Source of the DNA: an uncultured Muribaculaceae bacterium
Lineage (GTDB): Bacteria; Bacillota_I; Bacilli_A; RF39; UBA660
Length of the DNA stretch: 64,000 nt
Reading direction: 5' to 3'
NCBI GenBank assembly: GCA_964407685.1
Contig: CAYOWI010000003.1
Coordinates: 1,681-65,680 of the forward strand
Of the stretch, positions 7,415-49,549 are shown one piece after another. The notes under the pieces were generated by a model that was not told where the DNA came from, searched no databases, and saw only the letters and a program-made list of their open reading frames with translations. The first letter of the stretch is position 1. Each line of letters opens with the position of its first letter. The position numbers and the translations under genes were made by a program.

Positions 7415-8137
7415 TTATAATATGTCTTTCAAATCAGGCAATCTTTTTATTATATATGTAGGAGCATATTCTTTTGGTAACACTTCATTTTCCGCATTAT
7501 ACCAAACACTATCTATACTAGCATTCGTTCCGCCTTTTACTTCAGAACATAAAGAATCTCCAATGATTAACATCTTATCCTTTTCATAAAAGTTTAAATA
7601 TTCTTCTAATTCATCAAAAAATTCTTTTTTAGGCTTTGTAATAGTTTTTCTAGTCATGTCTGCCGAAAAAATTGAATCAATAAACTTATAACAGCCAATT
7701 TTTTCTAATTTAGTTTGAGCTGCAGATGATGGACCATTAGTCGCAATAACTATTTTATATTTTTTATTTAAATATTCTAATGTCTCATAAGCTCCTTTTA
7801 TTGGAACAACAACTTCTTTTAGACTAGATAAAAATAAATCGTTAATTTCAAAAGCTTTTTCCAAAGAAATTTTATTATCAAAATATAATTGGTACCTTAA
7901 ACTTCTAACATACTTAACAAATAATTCTTGAGATATATTATATTCATTAGGTACCACTATTTTATTATTATGAAAATCTATCCAAAATTGTTTATCTAAC
8001 TCATACCATTTTTTAAAACCTTCTAAAGTATAATCCTCATTCATATAATTAACCATTTTAGTATAAGCATATCTTACGTTTTCTAAATTATCAATTAAAG
8101 TATCATCTAAATCAAATAATAAAATCTCGTATTTCAT
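7415..8137 (-). CDS. HAD-superfamily hydrolase (YjjG-like nucleotidase/phosphatase)
   Basis: Motif I FDLDDTL; later ATNGP and GDS motifs. SD AAGGAG precedes ATG 8137; the track start at 8158 is a TTG. Confidence 0.8.
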   Translation of the reverse strand: MKYEILLFDLDDTLIDNLENVRYAYTKMVNYMNEDYTLEGFKKWYELDKQFWIDFHNNKIVVPNEYNISQELFVKYVRSLRYQLYFDNKISLEKAFEINDLFLSSLKEVVVPIKGAYETLEYLNKKYKIVIATNGPSSAAQTKLEKIGCYKFIDSIFSADMTRKTITKPKKEFFDELEEYLNFYEKDKMLIIGDSLCSEVKGGTNASIDSVWYNAENEVLPKEYAPTYIIKRLPDLKDIL

Positions 8138-8166
8138 AATCGTATGCTCCTTTTTCAATGTTTAAT

Positions 8167-8877
8167 TTATTTATTTTCTTTATATAATGCTTTTCTTTGT
8201 TCATTTTGTTTTTTATAATTATCTAAGTCCACATATAGTTTTCTATACTCTTTTAAAATATCTTCTAGCAAAATGTACATAGATACAATATACCCTTCAT
8301 TATAAGCCATCATTAGTTCATAATGTAAGGAAAGTTGAGTTCGATTTTTTGACGCATCCTCCGCTATTTTATTAAATTTAGAATACGTAGGATATTCTTT
8401 TAATGCATCATTTATTGAATCTATTTTGCTATTAGAGTAACTTAAAAATTCCTTAACTATTAAATCTCTTTGTTCTAAGTAATAAAGCTTGTCTTTTTCT
8501 AATTTTAAAATTTCATCTTCGTTATCAAAATTTTTATTAAATTCAATATCTTTGTTAACTTCATCTACTCTAGCTTCAATTATCCCAATTAAAGTTATAA
8601 AAAAAAGGTAATCTGTAACTAACTCTTCTTGGTGTAAAAACGCCGGAGTACAGCTACTACCTTTAGTAATTAAGTCTATCATACTTTGCGTATTAATATC
8701 ATTTATATCTTTTAATTTTTTCTGATTAGTTAATAATTTAAGTTTGATATTTTCTAGTTTTGAATTTTCCACGTCATTTTCTTTGATTTCTGGTTTACTT
8801 TTTTTCTTAACATATAAATTCTCCTTTAATAATTTAAATTTTGCTGTTTTTATATCATAAATTTTATAAAAATACAC
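8167..8877 (-). CDS. Hypothetical protein (236 aa)
   Basis: ORF only; no motif recognised. Confidence 0.45.
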   Translation of the reverse strand: MYFYKIYDIKTAKFKLLKENLYVKKKSKPEIKENDVENSKLENIKLKLLTNQKKLKDINDINTQSMIDLITKGSSCTPAFLHQEELVTDYLFFITLIGIIEARVDEVNKDIEFNKNFDNEDEILKLEKDKLYYLEQRDLIVKEFLSYSNSKIDSINDALKEYPTYSKFNKIAEDASKNRTQLSLHYELMMAYNEGYIVSMYILLEDILKEYRKLYVDLDNYKKQNEQRKALYKENK

Positions 8878-13480: not shown

Positions 13481-14545
13481 ATCATTCACACTTCCACAAC
13501 AATCACATTTCCAACTTCTTACGTTTAAGTTATTGGTCTTTTTTGTTTTGTTATTACAATGATTACATATTTTGCTACTCGGAAAATAACTATCTACTTG
13601 ATAATAGTATTTTCCTTTTTCTTTTGACTTCCACTTTAACATCTCGCATATCTTATTAAAACTTGCATCTAGTATATTTTTAGTTAGAGTGTGGTTGTTA
13701 TGCATATTTTGTACTTGTAATTTTTCAGAGATTATTATGTCATAATCTTTTACTAATTTATTTACTATTGTTATGATATTATGACGCCTAGCATTTTTTA
13801 TCTTACTATGAACTTTTGATATTAATATCTTTGTCTTGTTATAGTTGTTGCTTCCTTTTATTTGCCTTGATAGTTTTCTTTGTAATCTTTTTAGTTTCTT
13901 TTCTCTTTTATCTAGTTCTTTTGGATTTTTATATTTTTCTGCATCTGACGTTACTACTATATCTTTTACGCCTAAGTCTATTCCTACTATACTTGTTGGT
14001 TTTATCTTTTTTATATTTACTTCTTTTTCAGAGGCTAAAATACTTACGTAGTATTTACCTGCAGTTTCTTTTGTTATGCAAGCATTTATTATGGTTCCTT
14101 TTATATATTTTAAATTTCTATATCCTCTAATATCCACTAATCCTAGTTTTGGCAGTTTTATTTGTTTATTTTTTAAATCTAGTTTTATATTACTATATTC
14201 TTTACCTTTATAAGTACTTCTTATGGCATTTGTTCTATAGCTTTGTTTGTAATATTTACTTTTTAGCTTAGGATATGATGATCTTTTTGAAAAGAAGTTT
14301 TTAAAACTATCTTCTAGGTTAAATATGGCACATCTTATTGAACATGAATCCACCTCTTTTAACCATGGACATTCTTCTTTTAAATCCTTTAACATATTAC
14401 ACATATCATATGCCTTTATATATCTATTATCTTTACATTTATCTAAAAAATAATTATAGATGAACCTTGCACATCCAAATGTTTTATTTATCAAAATACT
14501 TTGCTGGGCACTTGGATACATTCTAAATTTATATGCTTTGTACAT
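13409..14545 (-). CDS. tnpB: IS200/IS605-family TnpB (OrfB) RNA-guided endonuclease
   Basis: 378 aa. N-terminus MYKAYKFRMYPSAQQ...FGCARFIYN. RuvC-I IVGIDLGVKD, RuvC-II IISEKL, zinc finger CNHC...CDCC, RuvC-III DRDINASINI. Confidence 0.92.
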   Translation of the reverse strand: MYKAYKFRMYPSAQQSILINKTFGCARFIYNYFLDKCKDNRYIKAYDMCNMLKDLKEECPWLKEVDSCSIRCAIFNLEDSFKNFFSKRSSYPKLKSKYYKQSYRTNAIRSTYKGKEYSNIKLDLKNKQIKLPKLGLVDIRGYRNLKYIKGTIINACITKETAGKYYVSILASEKEVNIKKIKPTSIVGIDLGVKDIVVTSDAEKYKNPKELDKREKKLKRLQRKLSRQIKGSNNYNKTKILISKVHSKIKNARRHNIITIVNKLVKDYDIIISEKLQVQNMHNNHTLTKNILDASFNKICEMLKWKSKEKGKYYYQVDSYFPSSKICNHCNNKTKKTNNLNVRSWKCDCCGSVNDRDINASINIMFEGLKMYMNEVLI

Positions 14546-14673: not shown

Positions 14674-16281
14674 TTACTTTCCTTTAACATATACGCCTTT
14701 TTGCATAGCCTCACTATAAGCATCACTATCATAATACCTAATCACAGCATCGACTTCATTACTACTTTCTGTATTATTCATATGGTAAGGCATACCATTA
14801 TTTTCATTACGATATAAACAAATTGTTTGGATTAAATCCTTATATCCATTATATTCGCTATCAGAAAGAAGCTTTTTTTCATTACCATCCTCACTAGTAA
14901 CAGTAACGTCTTTTACTTTTTTTAAATAGTCCATAGCTTGGTCCGTGTATTTTTCATCATAAGTACCAGATGCAACTAACTCTAAATATTGGTCTAATAT
15001 CGTAATAACTCGTGATTTATCTTTTGAAATAGATTCATCCTCCAACCTTTTAGACAAACCTTTAGATAATTTTTTAGCAATTTTGTTAGTAGCCCTTGTT
15101 TGATACAATTTTTCATTGCTATTACGACCTACTTTTTTAAATCCAGAATTATTAAGTCCCTCTTTATACAATTTTGGTTTCATCTTAGCTAGTTTATTTT
15201 TTGCTATAAATAGTTTAGCATTACTTACAATATCTTTTTCAGAAATACTTTTATTTACTTTTTCTATTTTATTTTCGTACTTAGCTTTTTTCTTTTCATA
15301 CCTAGCTTTTTTCTTATCGGTTTTAGCATTATCTAATTTATTTTCATATTTTTCTAATTTATTTTTATATTTTTTTAATTTGTTTTTATTAACTTTTGCA
15401 GCTTTTTTAGTTCTTGCAAAAAAGTTAACTATGCCGCCTAACATTTCAATAAATATATCAACACGACTATATTTTTTAATATCTTTTTTAGTTAATCCTT
15501 TTTGATAATCATTTTGAACTTGATTATTATAAGTGTTTATTATATCAACATAATCTTTAATTACATCTTTTGCCATATAAGAATCATCTAAATATTGAAC
15601 ACGATCTACTAATTCATCAATTTCATCTTTAATAATATCTTTTTTATCATCGATATCCTTAAGTATTTTTTTCTTTAATTCATTAAAACGATGTTCATTT
15701 TTTTCACGTACTTCTTGTATTCTTGTAGAAAGTGCCGATTTTTCTTTACATTCAGAAAGTGAATTAACAGCATCAAACGCACGTTTAAAATCCCTTGGCT
15801 TTTCTGTTTGTTCAAGCATTTGAACAAGTTTGCTCGCCGCCTCTACCTCTTCTATTAAAGCAGTATTTTCATTCTTTTTTACAATTACCTTGTGCTTTAA
15901 ATTCCAAATTTGTTTTTCCATATCTTTTTGAATATTTATAACATCAGCTAATTCATAATCAAATATATGAATTATTATGTAATTAATTTTAGAATTAATT
16001 ACATCAATATCCTTAAGCTTTTTTTCTAAGAACGCTATTTTTTTATTATGTTCTTCTATTTTTTGATTATAATGAAGTATTAATCTTTGCTTATTTCCTT
16101 TTTCTTGAAATTTTTCGATTGAAGATTTTAATGTTTCAATTTCTTTTTCGTTTTTATTAATTTCTTCTTTATATTCATTTGTATACTCATTTAAAATCCA
16201 TAATTGTGTATTAAAAAATTCCTTTGCAGCAAGCAATTGATTTTCTTTTGCTTGCTTTAACATTTCTTCATATTTTTCCAT
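14674..16281 (-). CDS. Hypothetical Lys/Glu-rich coiled-coil protein (535 aa)
   Basis: Long ORF with heptad repeats (KLKKYKNKLEKYENKL..KKARYEKKKAKYENKIEK). Confidence 0.55.
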   Translation of the reverse strand: MEKYEEMLKQAKENQLLAAKEFFNTQLWILNEYTNEYKEEINKNEKEIETLKSSIEKFQEKGNKQRLILHYNQKIEEHNKKIAFLEKKLKDIDVINSKINYIIIHIFDYELADVINIQKDMEKQIWNLKHKVIVKKNENTALIEEVEAASKLVQMLEQTEKPRDFKRAFDAVNSLSECKEKSALSTRIQEVREKNEHRFNELKKKILKDIDDKKDIIKDEIDELVDRVQYLDDSYMAKDVIKDYVDIINTYNNQVQNDYQKGLTKKDIKKYSRVDIFIEMLGGIVNFFARTKKAAKVNKNKLKKYKNKLEKYENKLDNAKTDKKKARYEKKKAKYENKIEKVNKSISEKDIVSNAKLFIAKNKLAKMKPKLYKEGLNNSGFKKVGRNSNEKLYQTRATNKIAKKLSKGLSKRLEDESISKDKSRVITILDQYLELVASGTYDEKYTDQAMDYLKKVKDVTVTSEDGNEKKLLSDSEYNGYKDLIQTICLYRNENNGMPYHMNNTESSNEVDAVIRYYDSDAYSEAMQKGVYVKGK

Positions 16282-38645: not shown

Positions 38646-39116
38646 TTATTTTAAAGTTTCTTTTAATTTTTTTAATGCAATATTTAAAGTGTATTGAATT
38701 GATCTAATATCTACATTTTCTTCATCTGCTATTTGTTTCTGTGTCATATCTTCAAAATAATACTTTTTAATTCTCCTTTTTTGTATTTCTGGAAGTAAAT
38801 CTATCGCTTTCTTTAAATCTTCAAAAGTAGATTTCTGAATGACATAATCTTCTAATCCAATAGACTTATTCAATGCTCTTGCTTCAAGATTATTTTCAGT
38901 TAGTTCAGAATGTTCAATATGACGATCAAATTCATTCATTTCACATATATCATCAAGTTCAAATCCATCCATAACATTAAAAACCACTTCACTTACGTCC
39001 ACCATTCTTAAAATTCCCATACCGTCTTTAAATAAAACTCTAAAGCTATCCTTATCGTCTATATACTCCAATGTATAAGGATTATCATTCTTTTTACGCC
39101 TTTTTGGTCTTTTCAT
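38646..39116 (-). CDS. ICE sigma-70 region-4-like HTH regulator, copy 1 (156 aa)
   Basis: C-terminal region-4 pattern LPEIQKRRIKKYYFEDMTQKQIADEENVDIRSIQYTL..ALKKL. N-terminal RRKKNDNPY and HIEHSELTENNL motifs are typical of the sigma-like proteins of Tn1549/CTn-type ICEs. Confidence 0.7.
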   Translation of the reverse strand: MKRPKRRKKNDNPYTLEYIDDKDSFRVLFKDGMGILRMVDVSEVVFNVMDGFELDDICEMNEFDRHIEHSELTENNLEARALNKSIGLEDYVIQKSTFEDLKKAIDLLPEIQKRRIKKYYFEDMTQKQIADEENVDIRSIQYTLNIALKKLKETLK

Positions 39117-40010: not shown

Positions 40011-40529
40011 TCACTTATTTCCCCACTCATAAAAGAAATTGCAGACACTTTTTTTATTTTTTAATATTTTTTTTAAATTTTTCTTAGCCCTCTCTAAAAT
40101 AATATGTACTGATTGATGAGTACTATTTTCTTCTTTAGCAATTTCAATTTCGTTTTTACCTTCAAAATAATATTTTTTTATTCTTCTCTTTTGAATAATA
40201 GGTAGTTTTTCAATAGCCATATATAGTTCGGAAAAAGCTATTTCTTTAATAACTTGTTCTTCTACACTTTCAACTTTATAATTTGTTCTTTTATATAATC
40301 TCTCATCGTCTAATTCAGAATGCTCTATATGTCTTTCATATTCATGCATTTGTGATATATCAATTAATTCAAAACTATTAAATGCATTATAAACTTCTTC
40401 ACTTATCTCAACTGTTTTATTTTCTTTAATACCATTATTAAAAGAAATAATATATATTTTCTCATTTTTATTATATTGTAATATATAAGGATTATCTCTA
40501 TCCTTTCTTCTTTTTGGATGATTATCCAT
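40011..40529 (-). CDS. ICE sigma-70 region-4-like HTH regulator, copy 2 (172 aa)
   Basis: Paralog of 38646..39116. Shared motifs RRKDRDNPY, ERHIEHSELDDERL, LPIIQKRRIKKYYFEGKNEIEIAKEENSTHQSVHIIL.RAKKNL. Confidence 0.7.
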   Translation of the reverse strand: MDNHPKRRKDRDNPYILQYNKNEKIYIISFNNGIKENKTVEISEEVYNAFNSFELIDISQMHEYERHIEHSELDDERLYKRTNYKVESVEEQVIKEIAFSELYMAIEKLPIIQKRRIKKYYFEGKNEIEIAKEENSTHQSVHIILERAKKNLKKILKNKKSVCNFFYEWGNK

Positions 40530-40941: not shown

Positions 40942-41346
40942 TCAGTTATTTTTATCACTCTCTTCAGAATTTAACTTTTCTAATGATTTATATAGAGCTT
41001 TTGGTATTTTTATTCCCATTTCACTACCATTTTCTAAAATAGAAAGCATTTCATTAAAAATAAATGATATTATTACTAATGTTCTTAATCCGCCATTTAT
41101 ATTAAGTAATTGATCTAATAAAACTGATAATGCAATTATACATAAATAGGCAACTTTCTTTATAATTCCTTTAGCACCAATACTACTATTTACCTTATTT
41201 TGAATAAAAGACTTACAAACACCAGTTATATAATCTAGCAACATTAACGCAAGTATTGTTTTTAATAAAAAATCAAAATCACCAAACAAAAATACGAAAA
41301 AAGTTCCAATAGCACTGCTTAATTTAATAATAATACTTTTCATCAT
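40942..41346 (-). CDS. Holin, phage_holin_4_1 (toxin-secretion/phage-lysis, TcdE-type) family
   Basis: Three TM segments. Family pattern LLDYITGVCKSF...NSSIGAKGIIKKVAYL...LLDQ...FIFNEMLSILENGSEMGIKIP. SD AGGAGA precedes ATGATG at 41346/41343. Confidence 0.85.
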   Translation of the reverse strand: MMKSIIIKLSSAIGTFFVFLFGDFDFLLKTILALMLLDYITGVCKSFIQNKVNSSIGAKGIIKKVAYLCIIALSVLLDQLLNINGGLRTLVIISFIFNEMLSILENGSEMGIKIPKALYKSLEKLNSEESDKNN

Positions 41347-41437
41347 ATCATCTCCTTTCAACAATAAATAAAATTTTAAAATTAAATATACATCTAATAT
41401 TTTATTATTACATACATTAACAAATCATATTTCAACA

Positions 41438-42031
41438 TTAAATTTCTAAAATTTGTCCTGGCTTAATTAAATTAGGATTTTCTCCAATAATAGCTTTATT
41501 TTTTTCATAAATTTTATTCCATGTAGTTTCAAATTTTTCTGCTATATCGTATAATGTATCCCCATAAACAACTTTATATCTTATATTTCCTTTTGTTTTA
41601 TTTGGTTGATAATCATAACTATGTGGGTCTTGGTAGTTATCCCCATCACTATCTTTCATTCCTAAATGTAAGTGGATTCCAGTTGCTTTTCCAGTCATAC
41701 CGGTATATCCTAATATGGTTTCTTCATCCACTTTTTCTCCAGTTTTAACACAAATACTATCTAAATGATAGTGTAAAAGTTTTTTATTAATTCTCGGATA
41801 ATTAACCCAAACAAACTTGGCACCATCACTTGCAATCCCACAGCTAATTATTACCCCATCTTCTAATGCATATTGTGGCCATTTTTCTCTATTAGTACCA
41901 TAATCACAACCATAATGATATTTACCAGTAATACCATTTCTTGTAATAATGCTTTTTCTATTTCCGAATGATGATGTTACATACCAATCGTCTCTTTTAA
42001 AGATTTTACTTGCTAATTTCAATTTAATCAC
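41438..42031 (-). CDS. M23 (LytM) metallopeptidase plus C-terminal LysM, no signal peptide
   Basis: HxxxD (HYGCDYG) and HxH (HLHLG) zinc motifs. LysM YKVVYGDTLYDIAEKF...IKPGQILEI. The N-terminus is hydrophilic. Confidence 0.85.
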   Translation of the reverse strand: MIKLKLASKIFKRDDWYVTSSFGNRKSIITRNGITGKYHYGCDYGTNREKWPQYALEDGVIISCGIASDGAKFVWVNYPRINKKLLHYHLDSICVKTGEKVDEETILGYTGMTGKATGIHLHLGMKDSDGDNYQDPHSYDYQPNKTKGNIRYKVVYGDTLYDIAEKFETTWNKIYEKNKAIIGENPNLIKPGQILEI

Positions 42032-42161: not shown

Positions 42162-42731
42162 TTAAGTTTCTACTTCACAAATGGTAGATTCTAAAGAGCA
42201 TTTTACATATTTAATTTCACCAGAGAAATCACCTTTTTCTCCTTCGAAATATATATAACCATTTTGTATTTTATAAATTCTAGCGTTGTATAAATTTACT
42301 TTTGTAGTTAAATCCCTTCTCTGAGTATTTATTCCATCTAAAGTATACTCGTAGATTTTACCACCAGAGCACCTAGAAATATATAATTTATTACCTGAAA
42401 AATAAGTATATTTTTCAGAACTATAAGCATTTGCATTACAAGACTCGTATTCATCTATTTTAATATAATCATTTTCTTTAACTTTCATAAATATACCATC
42501 TTTTATCATTTCACTACCCTCTTGAGAAATATCAGTAACAATATAAATTTCTTTTTCTTTTGTCTTATCACTTATAGTTTCATAAACCATAGATTTAATG
42601 TCTCTATTTTTTAAATCATAATGCTTAATATTTGCATATCTATTTTTATTACATCCAAAAACACAAAAAGTTAAAATAAAAATTAAAATCGCTTTTTTCA
42701 CACATATCACCATAATCATTATATCATACAA
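42162..42731 (-). CDS. Lipoprotein (candidate immunity/accessory protein)
   Basis: Signal peptide KKAILIFILTFCVFGC with a lipobox Cys. It starts 20 nt after the 747-aa gene. Confidence 0.65.
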   Translation of the reverse strand: MYDIMIMVICVKKAILIFILTFCVFGCNKNRYANIKHYDLKNRDIKSMVYETISDKTKEKEIYIVTDISQEGSEMIKDGIFMKVKENDYIKIDEYESCNANAYSSEKYTYFSGNKLYISRCSGGKIYEYTLDGINTQRRDLTTKVNLYNARIYKIQNGYIYFEGEKGDFSGEIKYVKCSLESTICEVET

Positions 42732-42751: not shown

Positions 42752-44995
42752 TTAATACCATGCACGGTTTACTCCTGAACTAGCATATTCTAGTCCAACG
42801 CATGCATATCCAGAGAAAGTTGTAAAAGTACTACTTCCTTTACGTTTTATTCCATTAATTCGTGTAGCCCACGGTCTTGTCCCTCCTGGATTAACTAAAT
42901 TACTTCGATTTATTCTAATATAATCTCCATTTTGAAGAGTCCCAACATAATTACCATTTGGATCTATGTAAACTACTGGTTTATTAATATAAAAATCACG
43001 ATATGATGAACTATCATAATTATGAAGAATATAACTATCAGTAGAAGGTACATATTCAACGCAAGTAAATGGTTCATGCCCTACTAATATTTGAGCATCA
43101 ACAACATCGTCATTAGCTGGGTCATCTTGCATACCTGCGGGAATATATTGTTCTCTAATATATCCCGTTTTTACATCTGTTCCATCATTAAACATAACCT
43201 TATGAACATTATCATTTTGAGGTTGCTCAACCGCATATCTTACATACATATCATGTGGTCTTATATATCCAATAATATTACCAGCTGGATTATATTCAAA
43301 CACTTCTGGTTCAGAAGGTAAATTAATCTCTTTTCTTTCATATACTGGAACCGATTCTTGAGTCATATTGATTAAAATTCTACAATGTCTTTCTAATGTG
43401 TGTGAATTATCATTAGTTTTAGAATATTCTTGAGATATTCCACTATATTGCCCTGAATATCCGTTTTTATCTATTTCTATAGATTGACCATTTGAAGAAA
43501 TTGTCGTCGTTGCAAACTGATCTAATGCCCAATTATCTGGTATAGAAAATCCAAGGTTTCCACTATAACCAGTAGACATATCGCTAACAAAACTACTACA
43601 AGCATATCCAGCTTTGCATACTCTAGAACATACATTTCTAGTTCCATAAACCCCAATCCTATATTTTGCTTTACCATTGAAAACCAAAGATTTACGAACA
43701 GCTTCAAAATAAGGAAGTATATTATTTGTAATTTCAGTATCTGTTGCATCATAATCTACCGCAAAATAAATAATTGTACCAAACTGTAATTGTAAATTAT
43801 CAGCTGCTATTGCCGCTGCCGATGCATCTGTTGTTCCTTGCGTCGCATTAAAATATGAAAGATATGTCCCAGAAGTTTGGAATATAGGGAATAATCTAAT
43901 TCCATTTCCAAACAATACTTGAATTTCACTTGAGGTTATTTTTTTATCTTTCCCTCCAGAAGCATTTGTTAAATATCTTGCAATATATCTATAATTTTTA
44001 TTTAATAATACCTGAACATTACTGCTATTAATTTTAGTCATACAGTCGCAGGCAATAGCATTTCTATCTGTGTCACCACAACTTACTAATAAAGATAACC
44101 ATGTAGTATAATCAAGATTCCCTGTTTGTGGTATTCCATACTTTGATTGAAATGCTTGAATAACACTTACTGTTAGATTCGATGTTATATCTCCATTACC
44201 AAATCCATTAAAATATAAAGCAATATTAGCTATTTTTTTGAATTTATTAATTTTATCGGAACTATAATTTTGTCCACTATAATTAGTTCCAGAATATGAA
44301 CCATTTGATAAAATTGTTGGTAAACAATTTTTTGTTGATGGGCCACAATTTCCATTAGCAACAGAAGTCGGCATTCCCTCTTCCGCTTGAACCGCATATA
44401 GTACCGCTTTACTTGTATTTCTTCCATATATTCCGTCGCACGGTGATAGTCCAATATATGCTTCATAATTAGCATTCAAATATCTTTGCATGGAAATTAT
44501 GTTTTGTATTCTCTCGGATTGATCATATGAATAAAAATAATCCATAGACATTAAAGCCTTCATAACATTAAGTGTTACAGTTGAAGAAGATGCATTAATT
44601 CCAGCATCTTGTTTTAGTTTTTTTATAGCAGAACCTGTTCCTGAATAAAAATTACATGTTGGAGCTCCAGTTCCTATAGAATATCCTTTACATAATAAGC
44701 CACCTTGAATAATTCCATAAATATTTTTCTTTGTCTCATCATCGTCAGCCTGTTGCTGAACACCATTTGGATACTTATTATTAAACGCTGATATTGTACC
44801 AGCACCAAAATTATCTGCTGTTGCAGTAATACCTAATTCAATTTGTAATGCATGAAGCAATGCATAAATTGTAGGCCACCCTGTTTTTCCGTTTTCTTGT
44901 ATTTCAGTATATCCAGTTTTACCTCGATATGTTTCATTAACCCACTCTTGTACTGCGAGTACATATGGATCTCCAGTTGTAGCTTTTTCAGCCAT
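42752..44995 (-). CDS. 747-aa leaderless multidomain cell-wall protein: PG-binding repeats, a DUF1906/Rv2525c-like glycoside-hydrolase-like domain and an unknown ~200-aa C-terminal region
   Basis: Starts MAEKATTGDPYVLAVQEWVN with no signal peptide or TM. PG_binding_1-type repeat VSVIQAFQSKYGIPQTGNLDYTTWLSLL. GH-like core YRYIARYLTN..KKITSSE..GIRLFPIFQ...IIYFAVDYD...RIGVYGTRNVC...DNWALDQF. Confidence 0.75.
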   Translation of the reverse strand: MAEKATTGDPYVLAVQEWVNETYRGKTGYTEIQENGKTGWPTIYALLHALQIELGITATADNFGAGTISAFNNKYPNGVQQQADDDETKKNIYGIIQGGLLCKGYSIGTGAPTCNFYSGTGSAIKKLKQDAGINASSSTVTLNVMKALMSMDYFYSYDQSERIQNIISMQRYLNANYEAYIGLSPCDGIYGRNTSKAVLYAVQAEEGMPTSVANGNCGPSTKNCLPTILSNGSYSGTNYSGQNYSSDKINKFKKIANIALYFNGFGNGDITSNLTVSVIQAFQSKYGIPQTGNLDYTTWLSLLVSCGDTDRNAIACDCMTKINSSNVQVLLNKNYRYIARYLTNASGGKDKKITSSEIQVLFGNGIRLFPIFQTSGTYLSYFNATQGTTDASAAAIAADNLQLQFGTIIYFAVDYDATDTEITNNILPYFEAVRKSLVFNGKAKYRIGVYGTRNVCSRVCKAGYACSSFVSDMSTGYSGNLGFSIPDNWALDQFATTTISSNGQSIEIDKNGYSGQYSGISQEYSKTNDNSHTLERHCRILINMTQESVPVYERKEINLPSEPEVFEYNPAGNIIGYIRPHDMYVRYAVEQPQNDNVHKVMFNDGTDVKTGYIREQYIPAGMQDDPANDDVVDAQILVGHEPFTCVEYVPSTDSYILHNYDSSSYRDFYINKPVVYIDPNGNYVGTLQNGDYIRINRSNLVNPGGTRPWATRINGIKRKGSSTFTTFSGYACVGLEYASSGVNRAWY

Positions 44996-45073
44996 ATTTT
45001 TTCATCTCCTTTAGTATTAAAATAATCATTTAATATATAGAAAAATCAAAAATACCGTATTTAAATCCGTTCT

Positions 45074-45144
45074 AATTCACAATATTAAATTAATTGACAA
45101 TTAAATTTATGAACATGCGATTAATGTACCTTATTGTCCGGACA
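45074..45144 (-). promoter_or_regulatory. Conserved cargo-operon control module, copy A
   Basis: 28-nt box AATTCACAATATTAAATTAATTGACAAT (45074-45101; contains the 11-bp palindrome AATTGACAATT, 45092-45102), then 33 nt, then the perfect palindrome TGTCCGGACA (45135-45144). The box starts 78 nt upstream of ATG 44995. It is near-identical to copy B. Confidence 0.6.
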
Positions 45145-45332
45145 TATAAAGTTATATTAATATACTTTTATAAATAAAAAACAGTGCTAGTCAATTAAAA
45201 CGTAAGTTTAAATATTAACTAACACCGCATATTCACCATATCTATTTGTCAATATAATGATATAATATTTTTCATATATAAGTCAATCTTTTTTTATATT
45301 TTTTAATAATATTTTTTCACATAATTAAATCA

Positions 45333-46400
45333 TCAACTATCTTTAATCATTTTTATAATAGTTATTCGTTTTATTTTAATATATATTAAAGTAACAACTA
45401 ATACAAGCATAAGTAAAATAGCAAAAAAATTTTTCATTATTATAATAAAGTCAAATAAATTTTTTATATCTAACAATGAAATAAATAATAAATTTATAAA
45501 CCCAATAGTAATAGTTGAAATTATCAAGGAAAACAACAGTATAAAAATAAAGTATGATAATATCAAAATTAAAATAAATATATTACTATATCCAAATGTT
45601 TTTAAGAGCGCTATACTATAGCTTTTTTCTGCAATGTTTGAGAATAATAAAAATAAAAACATTAACAATAAAGTTATATAACATAATAAGAAAAATCCTC
45701 TTAAAATATTATTAATATCCTTGTATGTTTGTACCTCATTTTGATATGAATCATCGATAAATTCTATTGAACAATCATTATCTTTTAATTTTTTTTCAAC
45801 TTTTTTATAACTAGACCTATTATTAATTAATACAATATATCTATTACTATTTTTAATTAATTTATTGATATTGTTATCGTTAGATATATATATGTAGTAA
45901 TTATCACTCCCGGTATTAGAATATACTCCAACAATGGTTAATTCTATACTTTGATTCTCTATAATAACTTTTATTTTTTTATTTATAACATCTTCTATAT
46001 TTTTATTATTTTTACTTAAAAATTTTTCCGAAACAATGGCTTCATTATATCCTAGATTATTAATTTTTCCTTTAACTAAATTTAATTTAATTAAGGGGTT
46101 TATAAATTTAAAACTACATTTATCAAATTTATTACATTTAGCATAAAATGAGCCTGTATTATAAGATACATCTTGAACATTCGGAAGGGATTTAATTAAT
46201 TTAGATTTATCCGTCCCATCATTACTAATAACATACATTGCTCTATTCTCAATTTTATTTATTATTTGTATATCTACTTTCCTTTCAGTTGAATTTATAA
46301 TTAATGCTATAATATTTATTACAAAAATCATGAAAGAGAATAATAAAATATAATATTTAGCTTTATCTGTTTTAATAGTTTTAAATAATAAATTAAACAT
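45333..46400 (-). CDS. ABC transporter permease, FtsX/MacB-like (355 aa)
   Basis: N-terminal TM, a ~200-aa extracytoplasmic domain and three C-terminal TMs (FtsX topology). Confidence 0.7.
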   Translation of the reverse strand: MFNLLFKTIKTDKAKYYILLFSFMIFVINIIALIINSTERKVDIQIINKIENRAMYVISNDGTDKSKLIKSLPNVQDVSYNTGSFYAKCNKFDKCSFKFINPLIKLNLVKGKINNLGYNEAIVSEKFLSKNNKNIEDVINKKIKVIIENQSIELTIVGVYSNTGSDNYYIYISNDNNINKLIKNSNRYIVLINNRSSYKKVEKKLKDNDCSIEFIDDSYQNEVQTYKDINNILRGFFLLCYITLLLMFLFLLFSNIAEKSYSIALLKTFGYSNIFILILILSYFIFILLFSLIISTITIGFINLLFISLLDIKNLFDFIIIMKNFFAILLMLVLVVTLIYIKIKRITIIKMIKDS

Positions 46401-46409
46401 AAAAATACA

Positions 46410-47603
46410 TTACCATTTTTTTATTTTATATCTAAGGAAGAAAGTCATTATAAGGCAAATAATAGATGATAAGAGTAAGTTTAAGTACATGGCTATATAA
46501 TTTATTTTAATTCTTAAATCATAAAACATTATTTTTTCAGAAATATATAACCTTTGAAAAATTATTATTATAATATTATAAAATAATATTGAACATAAAA
46601 AAGCAAATATAAATTCCAACATAAGTTCTACAATATATATTTTCGTTATTTGTGAATTTGAATAACCAGTTGCTTTCATAACTGAATAATCTTTTTTTCT
46701 TTTATTTATTTTTTTTATAGACATATAAGTTATTAATGCTATTGATAAAACTACAATGATTCCTGATACTATAAATATCAATGAAATAACATTATTGCCT
46801 AGTTCTTTATTTATATGTAAAGTAGGCATAATTATTTCAATCCCGTCTTTCTTCATTTCTTGCACTACTAAATTTTCATTATCTACATTATCTATTACCA
46901 TATACACAAAATTCTTATACGGATTTTTTTCTAAAAATATATCAGGTTGATATTTTTTATTTAGTTTTTTAACAACATCTAATTTTGTATAACATACATT
47001 CCCTTCTGTATGATTTGCTTTAGCATCGTATAAACCAACAATTTTAAACCGTTCCAAACTAGTAGAAGTAAGGAACGATAAATTTATATTTTTTCCTAAT
47101 TTATTAGTTATATCTATGCTTTTAGATGTCAGATAATCCTTTTGGTATTTTTCTACAAAAGGGTAAAATTGCTTTGCACAAATAATAGGATTTTCATTTA
47201 ATGATACGCTGTTCAAGTCATTACCATATATCAACTTTATAGGATCAGAAATAGTTCCTATAAGGTGTATACTGTTATTTTCATTAACAATACCAGTATC
47301 CATCACCCGCATTGATATCATATAGGATATTTCATCAAATGCATCAACTACGTGATTATAACTTTTAATTTTTTCTATTACACTATCTATATCATACTTT
47401 TTATTATTGAATCTAACTATATACGTTCTATAATCTACTAACTTTTTTACAGTATTATTCCAATAATTATTTAACGATTTTTTAAATGAAAAGCATAATA
47501 AGGTTAAAGCAAACATAAGACCAATAAGTAAAATACTTACTATATTTTTTTTATCTCTAATGAAATTTTTAAAACCAATAGTAGCTAAATATTTATTTTT
47601 CAT
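46410..47603 (-). CDS. ABC transporter permease, FtsX/MacB-like (397 aa)
   Basis: Same topology as the downstream permease; 4-nt overlap with the ATPase gene. Confidence 0.7.
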   Translation of the reverse strand: MKNKYLATIGFKNFIRDKKNIVSILLIGLMFALTLLCFSFKKSLNNYWNNTVKKLVDYRTYIVRFNNKKYDIDSVIEKIKSYNHVVDAFDEISYMISMRVMDTGIVNENNSIHLIGTISDPIKLIYGNDLNSVSLNENPIICAKQFYPFVEKYQKDYLTSKSIDITNKLGKNINLSFLTSTSLERFKIVGLYDAKANHTEGNVCYTKLDVVKKLNKKYQPDIFLEKNPYKNFVYMVIDNVDNENLVVQEMKKDGIEIIMPTLHINKELGNNVISLIFIVSGIIVVLSIALITYMSIKKINKRKKDYSVMKATGYSNSQITKIYIVELMLEFIFAFLCSILFYNIIIIIFQRLYISEKIMFYDLRIKINYIAMYLNLLLSSIICLIMTFFLRYKIKKW

Positions 47604-48274
47604 CTTTCTTCACCTCTCAATACTCCGCTTTCAATATATATAATTTTATCAGCATATTTAGTAATTGATTCACTATGACTTACTACAACTACACATTTAC
47701 CTATTTTAGATAACTTTTTCAATAAGTTAAATATTATTTGCTCATTTCTATTATCTAAATTCCCGGTTGGTTCGTCAGCGAGAATCATTTGTGGATTATT
47801 TACCAACGCACGAGCAATAGCAACACGTTGCTTTTCTCCTCCAGATAATTCTTTGGGAAAGTGATTTGCTCTATCACACAAATTAATCATATTTAATAAA
47901 TCTTTAACTATTTTTCTCTTTTCTATTATTAATAAATCATTATTTATTAATAAAGGTAACATAATATTTTCATATACCGTTAAATTTTCATTTAAATAAC
48001 ACTCTTGAAAAACAAAACCGATTTCACTTAGTCGTAATATGTTTTTTTCTTTTTCTGTAAGAGTAGAAGTATTATGACCATTAATACATAAAATACCAGA
48101 AGTGGGCTTATCTAAAAGCCCACTTATATTAAGCAATGTAGATTTCCCACTTCCTGAAGGTCCAATTATTGCGTAAAATTTACCGGTTTCAAATTTCATA
48201 CTTACATTATTTAATGCTAAAATTTCTTTTTTTGAATTTGTAAATTTTTTATATATACCATTTAATTCAATCAC
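47600..48274 (-). CDS. ABC transporter ATP-binding protein (MacB/LolD-type)
   Basis: Walker [13 protein letters not shown], signature [15 protein letters not shown], Walker [12 protein letters not shown]. Confidence 0.92.
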
Positions 48275-48288
48275 AATATTTCCTCCTT

Positions 48289-48738
48289 CTATGCTGCTGG
48301 ATACATATAGACTTCGCTAGATTTTACGCCATCATAATAGTTTCGTCCACCAGTAGAACTATTATAAATATCACTAAAGAAAGTATAAGATCTATAACCA
48401 GCTTCATATGTTCCCATTCGTACTTCTTTACAAGTACCGTAAGTATACACAGACGTATTATATTTGTAAGCACGTCCTGTAGCCACATCCCATAATCCTA
48501 GTTCCATAGTTGTAGAACCACTTTTTCGTACACTACCACTTGAAGTATTAAAACCATCTACAGCAACACTAATTTTATTTAATCCTTGGGCATAATTACG
48601 TGATGCGCCATTATGTATAGTACCATACGGCATATTAAGAGTTGATTTCCATCCAGCAGCACTAACACTACCAGTTAATGATAAAGATGTAATTATACCA
48701 AGTAATAATACAAATACCATGTTTCTTATTCTTTTCAT
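48289..48738 (-). CDS. Secreted beta-rich protein (149 aa), candidate bacteriocin-like or ABC-associated factor
   Basis: Sec signal MKRIRNMVFVLLLGIITSLSLTGSVSA/AG. The mature ~120 aa is rich in G, S, T and Y. It is the first gene of the ABC operon. Confidence 0.6.
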   Translation of the reverse strand: MKRIRNMVFVLLLGIITSLSLTGSVSAAGWKSTLNMPYGTIHNGASRNYAQGLNKISVAVDGFNTSSGSVRKSGSTTMELGLWDVATGRAYKYNTSVYTYGTCKEVRMGTYEAGYRSYTFFSDIYNSSTGGRNYYDGVKSSEVYMYPAA

Positions 48739-48807
48739 AATTTACCTCCTTTCTTAATATTTTTATTTAATATTTAGAAAGAACCAAATCCGAAATATAA
48801 CCATTAT

Positions 48808-48877
48808 AATTCATAATATTAAATTAATTGACAATGAAAAACTTAAATATTTTTTATTTTCTATTACTGTCCGGACA
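48808..48877 (-). promoter_or_regulatory. Conserved cargo-operon control module, copy B
   Basis: AATTCATAATATTAAATTAATTGACAAT (48808-48835; 27/28 identical to copy A), then 32 nt, then TGTCCGGACA (48868-48877). The box starts 69 nt upstream of ATG 48738. Confidence 0.6.
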
Positions 48878-48976
48878 AGTAATATTAAAATAAAAAGTAT
48901 TGATCATTAATAATCTAAATCAATAGAATTATAATAATCAATACCGTATATTTTCCGTTCTTTAATTGTCAATTTT

Positions 48977-49005
48977 ATAATAGCATTTTTATTTTTTATT
49001 GTCAA
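48977..49005 (-). promoter_or_regulatory. SigmaA-type promoter upstream of the secreted-protein/ABC operon
   Basis: Minus strand TTGACA(49005-49000)-17 nt-TATTAT(48982-48977). Confidence 0.45.
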
Positions 49006-49018
49006 TGTCAAAATTTAT

Positions 49019-49549
49019 TTAATTAATATAATTTAATTTTAATTTTTCTGTTTTGCAAATATCATTCCTGTAACAATATTTTATTTCAAATTTAAATGAA
49101 CTTTTAAAATCATCTTTCGTTGTTTCTAAAAATGAGTCTGATTCCCCATATTTATCTTTACTGTATTTACCAGTTTCTTCTATAGACAACTCTTTGATTT
49201 TATTTTCAAGACTCGATTCATTTAAGTCAATAAATTCGTTGGTAAACATTGATATATCATTAAAACTTAAATTAACAGAAAATTTTTCAATTTCGTTTTG
49301 TTTATCTATATTTTTTATAATTTTAAAGTTAGTAAGTAAAATATACCGTTGATCTTCATCTCCATAATATACTTTACCTGTTTCGAATCCGAAATGTTCA
49401 GATGTTCCTGTAAATTTATAAGTAACATTACTAGGGGTATCATAACCAAAATCATCTTTGAAATTTATAAAACATTTGGATTCATTACTACATCCTGAAA
49501 TAATTAATACACTAAAAATCACAACTATACTTAATAAAATTTTTTTCAT
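49019..49549 (-). CDS. Lipoprotein (176 aa)
   Basis: MKKILLSIVVIFSVLIISGC lipobox. SD GGAGA precedes ATG 49549; the track start at 49579 is upstream. Confidence 0.65.
   Translation of the reverse strand: MKKILLSIVVIFSVLIISGCSNESKCFINFKDDFGYDTPSNVTYKFTGTSEHFGFETGKVYYGDEDQRYILLTNFKIIKNIDKQNEIEKFSVNLSFNDISMFTNEFIDLNESSLENKIKELSIEETGKYSKDKYGESDSFLETTKDDFKSSFKFEIKYCYRNDICKTEKLKLNYIN

Follow-up and report, generated by a model that had tools for sequence, protein, structure and literature searches.

A Family of Secreted Jelly-Roll Proteins Encoded with a Two-Permease MacB-Like ABC System beside Bac41-Like Genes on a Conjugative Element: A Possible Effector-Immunity Pair

Results

Organization of the Operon

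The 64-kb stretch of contig CAYOWI010000003.1 analyzed here (the window; positions are counted from its first nucleotide) carries an operon for a small secreted protein and an ATP-binding cassette (ABC) transporter, which consists of an ATPase and two permeases termed X1 and X2. Up to ~33 kb the window is chromosomal, with genes for RNase J, PNPase and IF-2. It then enters an integrative conjugative element with an integrase gene at 36936-35167 and genes for a CHAP hydrolase, a VirB4-like ATPase, a coupling protein and a relaxase at 50.9-62.8 kb; this element carries the operon as cargo. The GC content of the window is low, at ~23-33%.

A preliminary description of this DNA, made from the sequence alone, had listed a lipoprotein gene followed by genes for a Sec-secreted small protein, a MacB-type ATPase and two FtsX-type permeases. 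All five open reading frames (ORFs) lie on the minus strand, at the coordinates given in that description (Table 1), and the proposed architecture is borne out by the ORFs, Pfam matches and membrane topology. Four of the genes form a tight operon, headed by the small gene. The ATPase gene starts with a GTG exactly 14 nt past the stop of the small gene and is preceded by an AGGAGG ribosome-binding site (RBS), the X1 start and the ATPase stop overlap by 4 nt (ATGA), and X2 starts 9 nt past the stop of X1; it is because of these two short gaps and the overlap that we regard the genes as tightly coupled. A literature search found no published description of such a small-protein/ABC module.

The Small Protein Belongs to an Unannotated Jelly-Roll Family

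The small protein has a hydrophobic N terminus and a cleavage site, between VSA and AGW, that is near-invariant in its family. The mature form comprises 121 aa (residues 29-149; 13.3 kDa, pI 9.1), is rich in G, S and Y (12% each) and T (10%), and contains one conserved Cys. A word-indexed search of 5.8 billion proteins yielded 17 homolog clusters with 52-82% identity, all of them unnamed and nearly all metagenomic. A further ~25 full-length relatives (134-166 aa, 21-43% identity), each with a signal peptide, came from an exhaustive profile search over 1.84 billion representatives. The preliminary description had been unable to assign the protein to a family, and this stands: we obtained no match in Pfam, NCBIfam, PHROG, PADLOC or the sequences of the PDB, and none of 26 family members matches a curated family. 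The small protein is thus a member of an unannotated family of secreted jelly-roll proteins of ~135-150 aa. The PADLOC defence models gave only generic ATPase matches.

Relatives of the small protein or of X1 were absent from 72,556 annotated plasmids searched by tblastn with these two proteins as queries. Viral contigs, searched with the small-protein profile only, contained no confirmed relative, nor did the GTDB species representatives, in a search that is blind to remote relatives. As to expression, RNA-flagged runs gave only thin, fragmentary contigs, which were evenly spread.

An AlphaFold2 (AF2) model computed from 14 sequences is all-beta, with 11 strands, a pLDDT of 88.7 overall and of >93 over the mature domain. 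Among the 50 matches listed in a Foldseek comparison with the PDB, its neighbors are CBM36, PirA, the C-terminal domain of Clostridium perfringens enterotoxin (C-CPE), Ena pilins and tip domains of lambda gpJ, all with E values of 2.7e-4 or weaker and TM scores of at most 0.56; in a viral structure library the best matches are small uncharacterized phage proteins. The preliminary description had noted a weak sequence resemblance to the bacteriocin Lcn972, which we could not reproduce at any level. None of the 26 family members matches TIGR01653 or Pfam Lactococcin_972 at E<=1, and the window protein itself has no such match at E<=0.1; no Lcn972 entry is found among the 50 structural matches listed; and the family profile retrieves from the PDB sequences, at E<=10, three unrelated chains only. 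A match of the family profile to the Hemolysin II C-terminal domain was likewise non-significant (E=0.05).

The profile search also returned ~200 long proteins (450-2,600 aa), which cover only profile positions 66-91, in many stretches. The two that we scanned (P0022, P0023) are WD40 propeller proteins with a local 'LWDxxTG'-like motif, for which reason we judged the remaining long matches to be spurious as well. The corresponding residues ~66-91 of the small protein (window ~48466-48543), with the segment TTMELGLWDVATGR, mimic a WD40 repeat and drew these repeat proteins at E<1e-3. This segment calls for caution in the automated annotation of the family.

The Transporter Combines One ATPase with Two Paralogous Permeases

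The ATPase matches Pfam ABC_tran with 115 bits. Its best NCBIfam models are LolD, TIGR03608, DarD, FtsE and MacB, and it stays below the curated cut-off of each: 216.1 bits against TIGR02211 (LolD; cut-off 307.75), 186.9 bits against NF008639 (cut-off 360), 208.5 bits against TIGR03608 (cut-off 254.85) and 198.3 bits against the FtsE model TIGR02673 (cut-off 264.85). The closest solved chains are 5XU1 (245 aa), MJ0796, LolD and YtrE. The search output describes 5XU1 only as an ABC transporter ATP-binding protein; we take it to be the ATPase of a pneumococcal MacAB-like pump (Spr0693-0695). Judged by these matches, the ATPase belongs to the MacB/LolD/FtsE clade and, at equivalog level, is neither a LolD nor an FtsE. 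Within its coding sequence lies a terminator-like hairpin of 10 pairs with a T-rich tail (48100-48125, minus strand), which is probably incidental.

Both permeases are predicted to consist of a first transmembrane (TM) helix, an extracytoplasmic domain of ~200-230 aa (~230 aa in X1) and TM2-4. X1 exceeds the Pfam FtsX cut-off of 25.5 bits (51.4 bits), and X2 remains below it (21.8 bits), with FtsX matches in five of seven X2 orthologs; the Pfam MacB_PCD model is matched by neither permease of the window. No NCBIfam model and, by sequence, no solved structure was found for either permease. The two families nonetheless align with each other from end to end, including the ectodomain (hhalign: 99.1%, E=1e-18, 336 columns, 19% identity). 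The machine is thus built from one ATPase and two old paralogous 4-TM permeases, whose predicted topology is that of type VII (MacB/FtsX) systems. Members of the MacB family act extracytoplasmically by mechanotransmission, without transporting substrates across the membrane (PMC5985334).

The architecture is known from LolCDE, which likewise combines a separate ATPase with two diverged, paralogous MacB-fold permeases with large ectodomains, and LolD is both the top NCBIfam match of our ATPase and among its closest solved chains. Against an equivalence stand the score well below the LolD cut-off and the nature of the host, by appearance a Firmicute of low GC content (28%; SpoVS is encoded in related loci), which would have no outer membrane or Lol pathway. 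The preliminary description had also compared the module to BceAB. This likeness does not hold, as there are two separate 4-TM permeases in place of a 10-TM BceB, and no two-component sensor gene is found in or beside the operon. A gene for a membrane-fusion adaptor is equally missing there, and the region from 40 to 51 kb is free of genes for kinases or response regulators.

A Promoter and Leader Shared with a Hydrolase Gene

The promoter of the operon is the best sigma-70-like match in the region (11/12 positions, with TG) and its TTGAC is invariant in an alignment of eight orthologous leaders. It is followed by a leader of which the window holds a second copy, ahead of the gene for a large hydrolase that lies directly downstream of the operon. 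In both copies the order of elements is the same: a strong sigma-70-type promoter, a conserved box AATTGACAATT…ACGG, a hairpin with T-run, a TGTCCGGACA palindrome, a second conserved box, CTTTCTAAATATTAAAT and the RBS. The leader, of ~235-290 nt, contains two AATTG(A/T)CAATT…GAACGG-N9-ACGGTATT units. Both TGTCCGGACA and TTGTCAATTAATTTAATATT occur exactly twice in the 64 kb, with one copy ahead of the small gene and the other ahead of the hydrolase gene; by chance, 0 copies of TGTCCGGACA are expected (100 shuffles).

The hairpin is an intrinsic terminator (-18 kcal/mol) and is supported by covariation, since 9 of the 13 pairs of its helix are kept via changes on both sides in the eight sequences. 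A helix in the 3' half of the leader that would sequester the RBS showed covariation in only 1 of 11 pairs, despite high sequence conservation, and we do not claim it. A covariance model of the leader core (R1) scores 89.8 bits at the operon leader and 82.3 bits at the hydrolase leader. Among the related loci that we compared with the window, labelled L003-L026, two copies are found in L003, two in L007 and three in L009/L010, where they precede the hydrolase gene, a 65-aa gene plus the gene of an M23 peptidase, and the small gene. Two R1 matches from outside the training alignment still score E ~1e-10. R1 finds no copy ahead of the lipoprotein gene, nor any in the loci of the distant subfamily, the enterococci or Salimicrobium, and Rfam has no family over 40-52 kb at E<=1.

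By its distribution the leader defines a regulon comprising the small-protein/ABC operon, the BacA-like hydrolase unit and, in L009, also the M23 unit. The co-regulation of the operon with the holin/hydrolase cargo, proposed in the preliminary description, is supported by this shared leader.

The Neighboring Genes Resemble the Bac41 Locus

The 747-aa hydrolase aligns over 541 aa, at 41% identity (E=1e-105), with a 726-aa DUF1906-type glycoside hydrolase encoded beside bacL2 on the Enterococcus faecalis plasmid NZ_CP136347 (locus L025), and the holin of the window is related to the holin of this Bac41 locus (29% identity, E=3e-9). The order in L025 is a 595-aa peptidoglycan amidohydrolase, bacL2, a phage holin, a 175-aa ORF, the 726-aa glycoside hydrolase and a polytopic membrane protein of 180 aa. 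Going by position and domains, we took the amidohydrolase to be BacL1, the glycoside hydrolase to be BacA and the last ORF to be BacI. The genes of Bac41 are bacL1, bacL2, bacA and bacI, with BacL1 and BacA as secreted effectors with peptidoglycan-hydrolase domains and BacI for self-protection (bioRxiv 10.1101/2020.11.20.391417). Homologs of the hydrolase at 35-45% identity occur on 563 plasmids, 384 of them enterococcal.

Bac41 is thereby the closest known system for the neighboring genes, not for the operon. The likeness extends to the gene directly after the hydrolase gene and to the location on a conjugative element. Unlike Bac41, the window has an M23/LysM peptidase in place of BacL1, and a blastp search with all proteins of L025 matched only BacA and the holin among the cargo proteins, leaving BacL1, BacL2 and BacI without homologs; L025, the enterococcal locus examined, in turn has neither the small protein nor the ABC/FtsX genes nor the leader. 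In terms of homology, the cargo is a Bac41-like weapon island without BacI. The interbacterial-competition theme of the preliminary description gains strength from the kinship of the hydrolase with BacA.

In the loci with downstream DNA, the BacA-like gene is followed by a gene of 177-193 aa (window 42162-42731, L003 14023-14556, L007 7561-8142, L009 2785-3366), and on Enterococcus (L025 9286-9828) and Salimicrobium (L026 9287-9835) plasmids by the gene of a 180-182-aa membrane protein. Across clades these products are non-homologous, being a lipoprotein, an N-terminally anchored protein or a polytopic membrane protein. By its position, the post-hydrolase gene is a candidate immunity gene for the hydrolase. 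It is the fastest-diverging part of the island (19-41% identity), which looks like non-orthologous replacement of an immunity gene.

The M23/LysM peptidase occupies the place expected of a second effector. Immediately beyond the holin gene are genes for two paralogous proteins with a C-terminal helix-turn-helix (HTH) of the sigma-70-region-4 type (40011-40529, 172 aa, and 38646-39116, 156 aa; minus strand). L009 encodes in this position a 159-aa protein with a faint Sigma70_r4_2 match, and the Salimicrobium plasmid has a 'sigma factor-like HTH' gene ahead of its BacA-like gene. By analogy with bacL2, whose position they share, these proteins are candidate positive regulators.

The lipoprotein encoded upstream of the operon starts with MKKILLSIVVIFSVLIISG followed by C, in a lipobox (…LIISG, then C) whose Cys20 is conserved in orthologs. 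Relatives with 42-47% identity are encoded directly after the gene of the type IV secretion system (T4SS) coupling protein in other conjugative elements (L021 9001-9531, L023/L024 9001-9519), and these three loci are without small gene or ABC genes. With its own promoter, no leader copy and relatives in elements that lack the operon, the lipoprotein gene is separable. It forms a transcription unit of its own, outside the leader regulon and outside the operon with which the preliminary description had grouped it. Its distribution suggests a role tied to the element, for example in exclusion, rather than to the operon. The AF2 model of the lipoprotein (pLDDT 85.7) has no significant fold neighbor in a structure search, and the two lipoproteins of the window (49019-49549 and 42162-42731), considered as possible paralogs, proved unrelated on comparison.

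In the chromosomal part of the window, PNPase and RNase J are singletons at 90% identity in a collection of 15 billion proteins, which indicates that the host lineage is poorly sampled. A 535-aa ORF (14674-16281, minus strand) has no Pfam match at E<=1e-5.

Table 1. Features of the operon, its leader and the neighboring cargo genes (window positions)
Feature	Position	Strand	Length	Remarks
Promoter of operon	48977..49005	-		-35 TTGACA, 17-nt spacer, TG-extended -10 TATTAT
Leader of operon	48739..48976	-	~235 nt	
Box A, operon leader	48974-48955	-		AATTGACAATTAAAGAACGG
Intrinsic terminator hairpin, operon leader	48946-48896	-		
T-run, operon leader	48895-48887	-		
Palindrome, operon leader	48878-48864	-		TTGTCCGGACAGTAA
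Box B, operon leader	48835-48801	-		
CTTTCTAAATATTAAAT element, operon leader	48781-48765	-		
RBS, operon leader	48751-48745	-		AAGGAGG
Small-protein gene	48289..48738	-	149 aa	Sec-secreted; unannotated family
ABC ATPase gene	47600..48274	-	224 aa	GTG start; MacB/LolD type
Permease X1 gene	46410..47603	-	397 aa	FtsX/MacB type
Permease X2 gene	45333..46400	-	355 aa	Second FtsX-type permease, X1 paralog
Second promoter and leader copy	44996..45286	-		Ahead of hydrolase gene
Promoter, second copy	45286-45257	-		
Terminator, second copy	~45228-45176	-		
Palindrome, second copy	45145-45131	-		
Box B, second copy	45101-45067	-		
BacA-like hydrolase gene	42752..44995	-	747 aa	PG_binding_1 and Rv2525c/DUF1906 glycoside-hydrolase-like domain; no signal peptide
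Post-hydrolase lipoprotein gene	42162..42731	-	189 aa	Lipobox FGC
M23 peptidase gene	41438..42031	-	197 aa	With LysM; no signal peptide
Holin gene	40942..41364	-		Phage_holin_4_1, Pfam 125 bits
Upstream lipoprotein gene	49019..49549	-	176 aa	Own promoter-like site 49598-49570

The Small Gene and the Transporter Genes Stay Together across Divergent Loci

In L003-L011, whose family members are 57-64% identical, the order of lipoprotein, small gene, ATPase, X1 and X2 is kept, and near the operon these loci encode a BacA-like hydrolase of 767-801 aa, then the gene of 177-193 aa and an M23 peptidase; the holin is present in L003 and L009, a sigma-like protein in L009. In L015, L016 and L018-20 the small gene, at 21-28% identity, is still found beside genes for an ATPase, a ~400-aa permease and a ~350-aa permease. 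A BacA-like hydrolase lies near these distant small genes in L015 and L018-20, and in the DNA available for L016 and L017 the module occurs without a hydrolase.

A hidden Markov model (HMM) scan of all ORFs in the loci showed small genes and transporter sets in varying ratios. In L018 a single transporter set goes with three small-gene paralogs (7492-7914, 8001-8435, 14031-14453) at 42-53% identity; two of them have almost identical signal peptides and differ in their mature domains, with an insertion sequence (IS) element between them. In L016 (1193-9636) a single small gene precedes three sets of ATPase, permease and permease, which stand in tandem and diverged long ago (ATPases 39-50%, X1 23-33%); an intrinsic-terminator-like hairpin lies between its small gene and the first ATPase gene. 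The varying ratio resembles that in multi-bacteriocin loci with orphan immunity genes. In L012-L014 (e.g. L012 9225-10787) chromosomal housekeeping genes surround what is left of a decayed module, in which the lipoprotein gene and the leader have stayed whole, a frameshift disrupts the small gene, the ATPase is cut to 110 aa and the permease genes are missing. The frameshifted form of the small gene is recorded on at least 22 contigs.

Table 2 gives the divergence of the individual proteins. The ectodomain of X1 is better conserved than its TM part, and X2 diverges faster than X1. Toward the distant locus L015, the small protein and both permeases have diverged together, and ATPase and hydrolase have held. 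From this joint fall in identity it follows that the permeases track the small protein and not the hydrolase, in a comparison of pairwise identities among five loci that are phylogenetically non-independent. The histories of the units also differ, as between the window and L009 the small proteins are 62% identical and the hydrolases 42%.

Table 2. Amino acid identity of the encoded proteins within the close family and to the distant locus L015
Protein	Within close family	Versus L015
Small protein	57-70%	22-28%
ATPase	55-63%	51-55%
X1	40-56% (ectodomain 47-60%, TM part 29-49%)	28-31%
X2	30-43%	25-29%
Hydrolase	41-69%	40-49%
Lipoprotein (49019-49549 family)	40-48%	not present
Post-hydrolase protein	19-41%	

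Discussion

What can be said about the function of the operon? Our best reading, which we hold tentatively, is that it encodes a cognate pair of a secreted effector and an ABC system for immunity, both the toxicity of the former and the protective role of the latter being what we infer from the genes and their conservation. Of the bacteriocin/immunity cargo suspected in the preliminary description, this retains the effector with its dedicated ABC genes and gives up the kinship with Lcn972. In such a scenario, the 13-kDa cationic beta-sandwich protein would leave the cell via Sec and act outside as an antibacterial or surface-binding effector. The producer would be protected by a heterodimeric type VII (MacB-like) machine of one ATPase and two paralogous 4-TM permeases, most likely through the ATP-driven dislodging of the small protein from a membrane-proximal target at the outer face of the membrane, as may be supposed by analogy with Lcn972 orf2-orf3 and with YknXYZ and the toxin SDP. 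The pair would form one unit of a Bac41-like bacteriolysin island, carried as cargo of the conjugative element, and its expression would be tied to the BacA-like unit, and elsewhere to the M23 unit, by the shared promoter-plus-leader with its intrinsic terminator.

Several observations favor a cognate effector-immunity pair: the small gene heads a tightly coupled operon; its place beside the transporter genes is kept down to 21-28% identity; the permeases co-diverge with the small protein; the stoichiometry of small genes and transporter sets is variable; and the hydrolase has its own positional immunity candidate, so that the ABC system is not needed to explain hydrolase immunity. Nor is it needed for export of the small protein, as this would be handled by Sec, given the conserved signal peptide and AXA site, and the extracytoplasmic action of MacB-type systems suits a protective role. 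We also count in its favor that the decay in L012-14 has affected both partners together, with a frameshift in the small gene and truncation or loss of the ABC genes. Other points weigh against it. The fold is a generic jelly roll whose nearest neighbors are carbohydrate- or receptor-binding modules (CBM36, PirA, C-CPE, phage tail-tip), with no known bacteriocin alike. In the close family, conservation of the small protein equals that of the ATPase, with no obvious arms-race diversification, and the co-divergence argument is limited by the number and the non-independence of the loci compared. Finally, the persistent linkage and co-regulation with the BacA-like hydrolase across divergent loci suggest integration with the bacteriolysin, not an independent toxin.

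The pair might work like two known systems, to which it is comparable by analogy. The Lcn972 cluster (lcn972-orf2-orf3 on plasmid pBL1) is also headed by the gene of a Sec-dependent, unmodified beta-rich protein and also resides on a mobile element, and the ABC genes credited with immunity directly follow the structural gene (PMC4055356). In both cases the protein carries a Sec-type signal peptide, with a conserved AXA site in ours. Unlike Lcn972, the mature form of which is presumably ~66 aa in length, our small protein has no sequence, profile or fold kinship to that bacteriocin, and the transporter differs as well. Its genes are ordered as ATPase and two 4-TM permeases, neither of which matches TIGR01654, a model that we take to describe a single membrane protein of ~650 aa with seven TM segments, and the ATPase falls short of the TIGR03608 cut-off. 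The second system, YknXYZ, is a Gram-positive member of the MacB family that protects against the endogenous toxin SDP; like AS-48EFGH, it exemplifies MacB-family transporters that protect from, or handle, a secreted antibacterial peptide of the producer itself (PMC5985334). These systems differ from ours in having a membrane-fusion adaptor (YknX) or another subunit set and in their substrates, which are small peptides and not a 13-kDa folded beta-sandwich, and homology to them exists at the level of the ABC superfamily only. A superficial likeness to the lantibiotic immunity system NisI/NisFEG, a lipoprotein beside an ATPase and two non-identical permeases, does not extend further: our lipoprotein gene forms a unit of its own outside the regulon, and other conjugative elements carry it with no ABC system alongside. 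In addition, LanE and LanG are, as we assume, 6-TM permeases of the ABC-2 type and not of the FtsX type.

The persistent linkage to the hydrolase could also mean that the ABC heterodimer and the beta-sandwich protein jointly form an immunity device against the co-encoded bacteriolysin, replacing BacI. The small protein would then be an adaptor on the producer's own wall or on a permease ectodomain, with the ABC motor clearing away or blocking hydrolases where the nascent wall lies close to the membrane. The window indeed lacks a BacI homolog, yet has homologs of BacA and the holin; the operon and the hydrolase unit, and in L009 the M23 unit as well, have the leader in common; a BacA-like hydrolase is linked to the operon in the window, L003, L007, L009, L015 and L018; a CBM-like fold would suit wall binding; and among the extracellular parts, conservation is highest in the X1 ectodomain and the small protein. 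We still consider this explanation unlikely. The divergence of the permeases follows that of the small protein and not that of the hydrolase, the stoichiometry varies from three small genes per transporter set (L018) to one small gene for three (L016), and a cleaved, Sec-secreted soluble protein would diffuse off a Gram-positive cell. Moreover, a separate candidate immunity gene follows the hydrolase gene where downstream DNA is available, and L016 and L017 have the module without a hydrolase in the DNA at hand. Should the explanation be correct all the same, which we doubt, the beta-sandwich protein and the MacB-type machine would represent a previously unknown device for self-protection from, or control of, a peptidoglycan-hydrolase weapon, in which a mechanotransmission motor, with a wall-binding secreted adaptor, does the job of BacI and holds Bac41-like bacteriolysins away from the nascent wall of the producer, the weapon as a whole being gated by the undescribed terminator-containing leader.

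A distinctly unlikely alternative is that the small protein is a third, targeting or potentiating component of the bacteriolysin, working with the BacA-like hydrolase and the M23 peptidase and non-toxic alone, and that the ABC system protects from the combined activity. Bac41 itself is multi-component, with BacL1 insufficient alone and the role of BacA undefined (bioRxiv 10.1101/2020.11.20.391417), and the small protein is co-regulated with the hydrolase to which it is linked. Its fold also resembles small receptor-binding partners such as PirA of the binary toxin PirA/PirB, but with the weak scores given above. Against such a component speak the differing histories of small gene and hydrolase, the lack of small protein and transporter in L025, and their absence, as judged by the small protein and X1, from a plasmid collection in which 563 members carry the BacA-like gene.

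The presence of FtsX-type permeases next to peptidoglycan hydrolases, under one control element, further brings to mind the FtsEX systems, which regulate hydrolases (PMC5985334). A corresponding mechanotransduction complex might activate or position the co-encoded hydrolases in the producer, for instance for release or lysis, with the small protein as a coupling factor. We regard this as very improbable. The ATPase stays below the FtsE cut-off, the hydrolases have no signal peptides and a holin is present for their release, and the three tandem transporter sets of L016 would be hard to explain. The all-beta sandwich of the small protein does not fit either, as the FtsX partners known to us (EnvC, PcsB, CwlO, RipC) use coiled-coil domains. 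Hardly any probability, lastly, falls to a generic detoxification system for antimicrobial peptides or antibiotics of external origin, of the kind of BceAB, YknXYZ or the pneumococcal MacAB-like pump, with the small protein unrelated or accessory: the MacB family does hold many resistance modules, and the best solved relative of the ATPase, 5XU1, presumably stems from such a pump, but the small gene is coupled to the transporter, and always first, down to 21% identity, adaptor and sensor genes are missing in and beside the operon, the permeases are not of the 10-TM BceB type, and the unit is regulated with the bacteriolysin and not by an envelope-stress system.

Four aspects of the locus are new: the unannotated family of secreted jelly-roll proteins, its invariable pairing with a two-permease type VII ABC set, its integration with a Bac41-like bacteriolysin that is without BacI, and the terminator-containing leader that the units share. 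If the small protein is antibacterial, it would establish a new family of Sec-dependent, unmodified protein bacteriocins in gut anaerobes, jelly rolls of ~13 kDa for which Pfam and NCBIfam hold no model. Under the effector-immunity reading, the transporter would be the first two-permease (LolC/LolE-like) type VII ABC system assigned to bacteriocin self-protection in a Gram-positive organism. With this locus the Bac41-type bacteriolysin, previously a subject of work on enterococci, becomes known from a Clostridia-like lineage as well, in a version with an M23 peptidase for BacL1, no BacI and an added ABC module, the units of which are linked by a conserved leader with a covarying terminator. 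Since the island resides on a conjugative element, it may serve this element, too, as a module for maintenance or competition.

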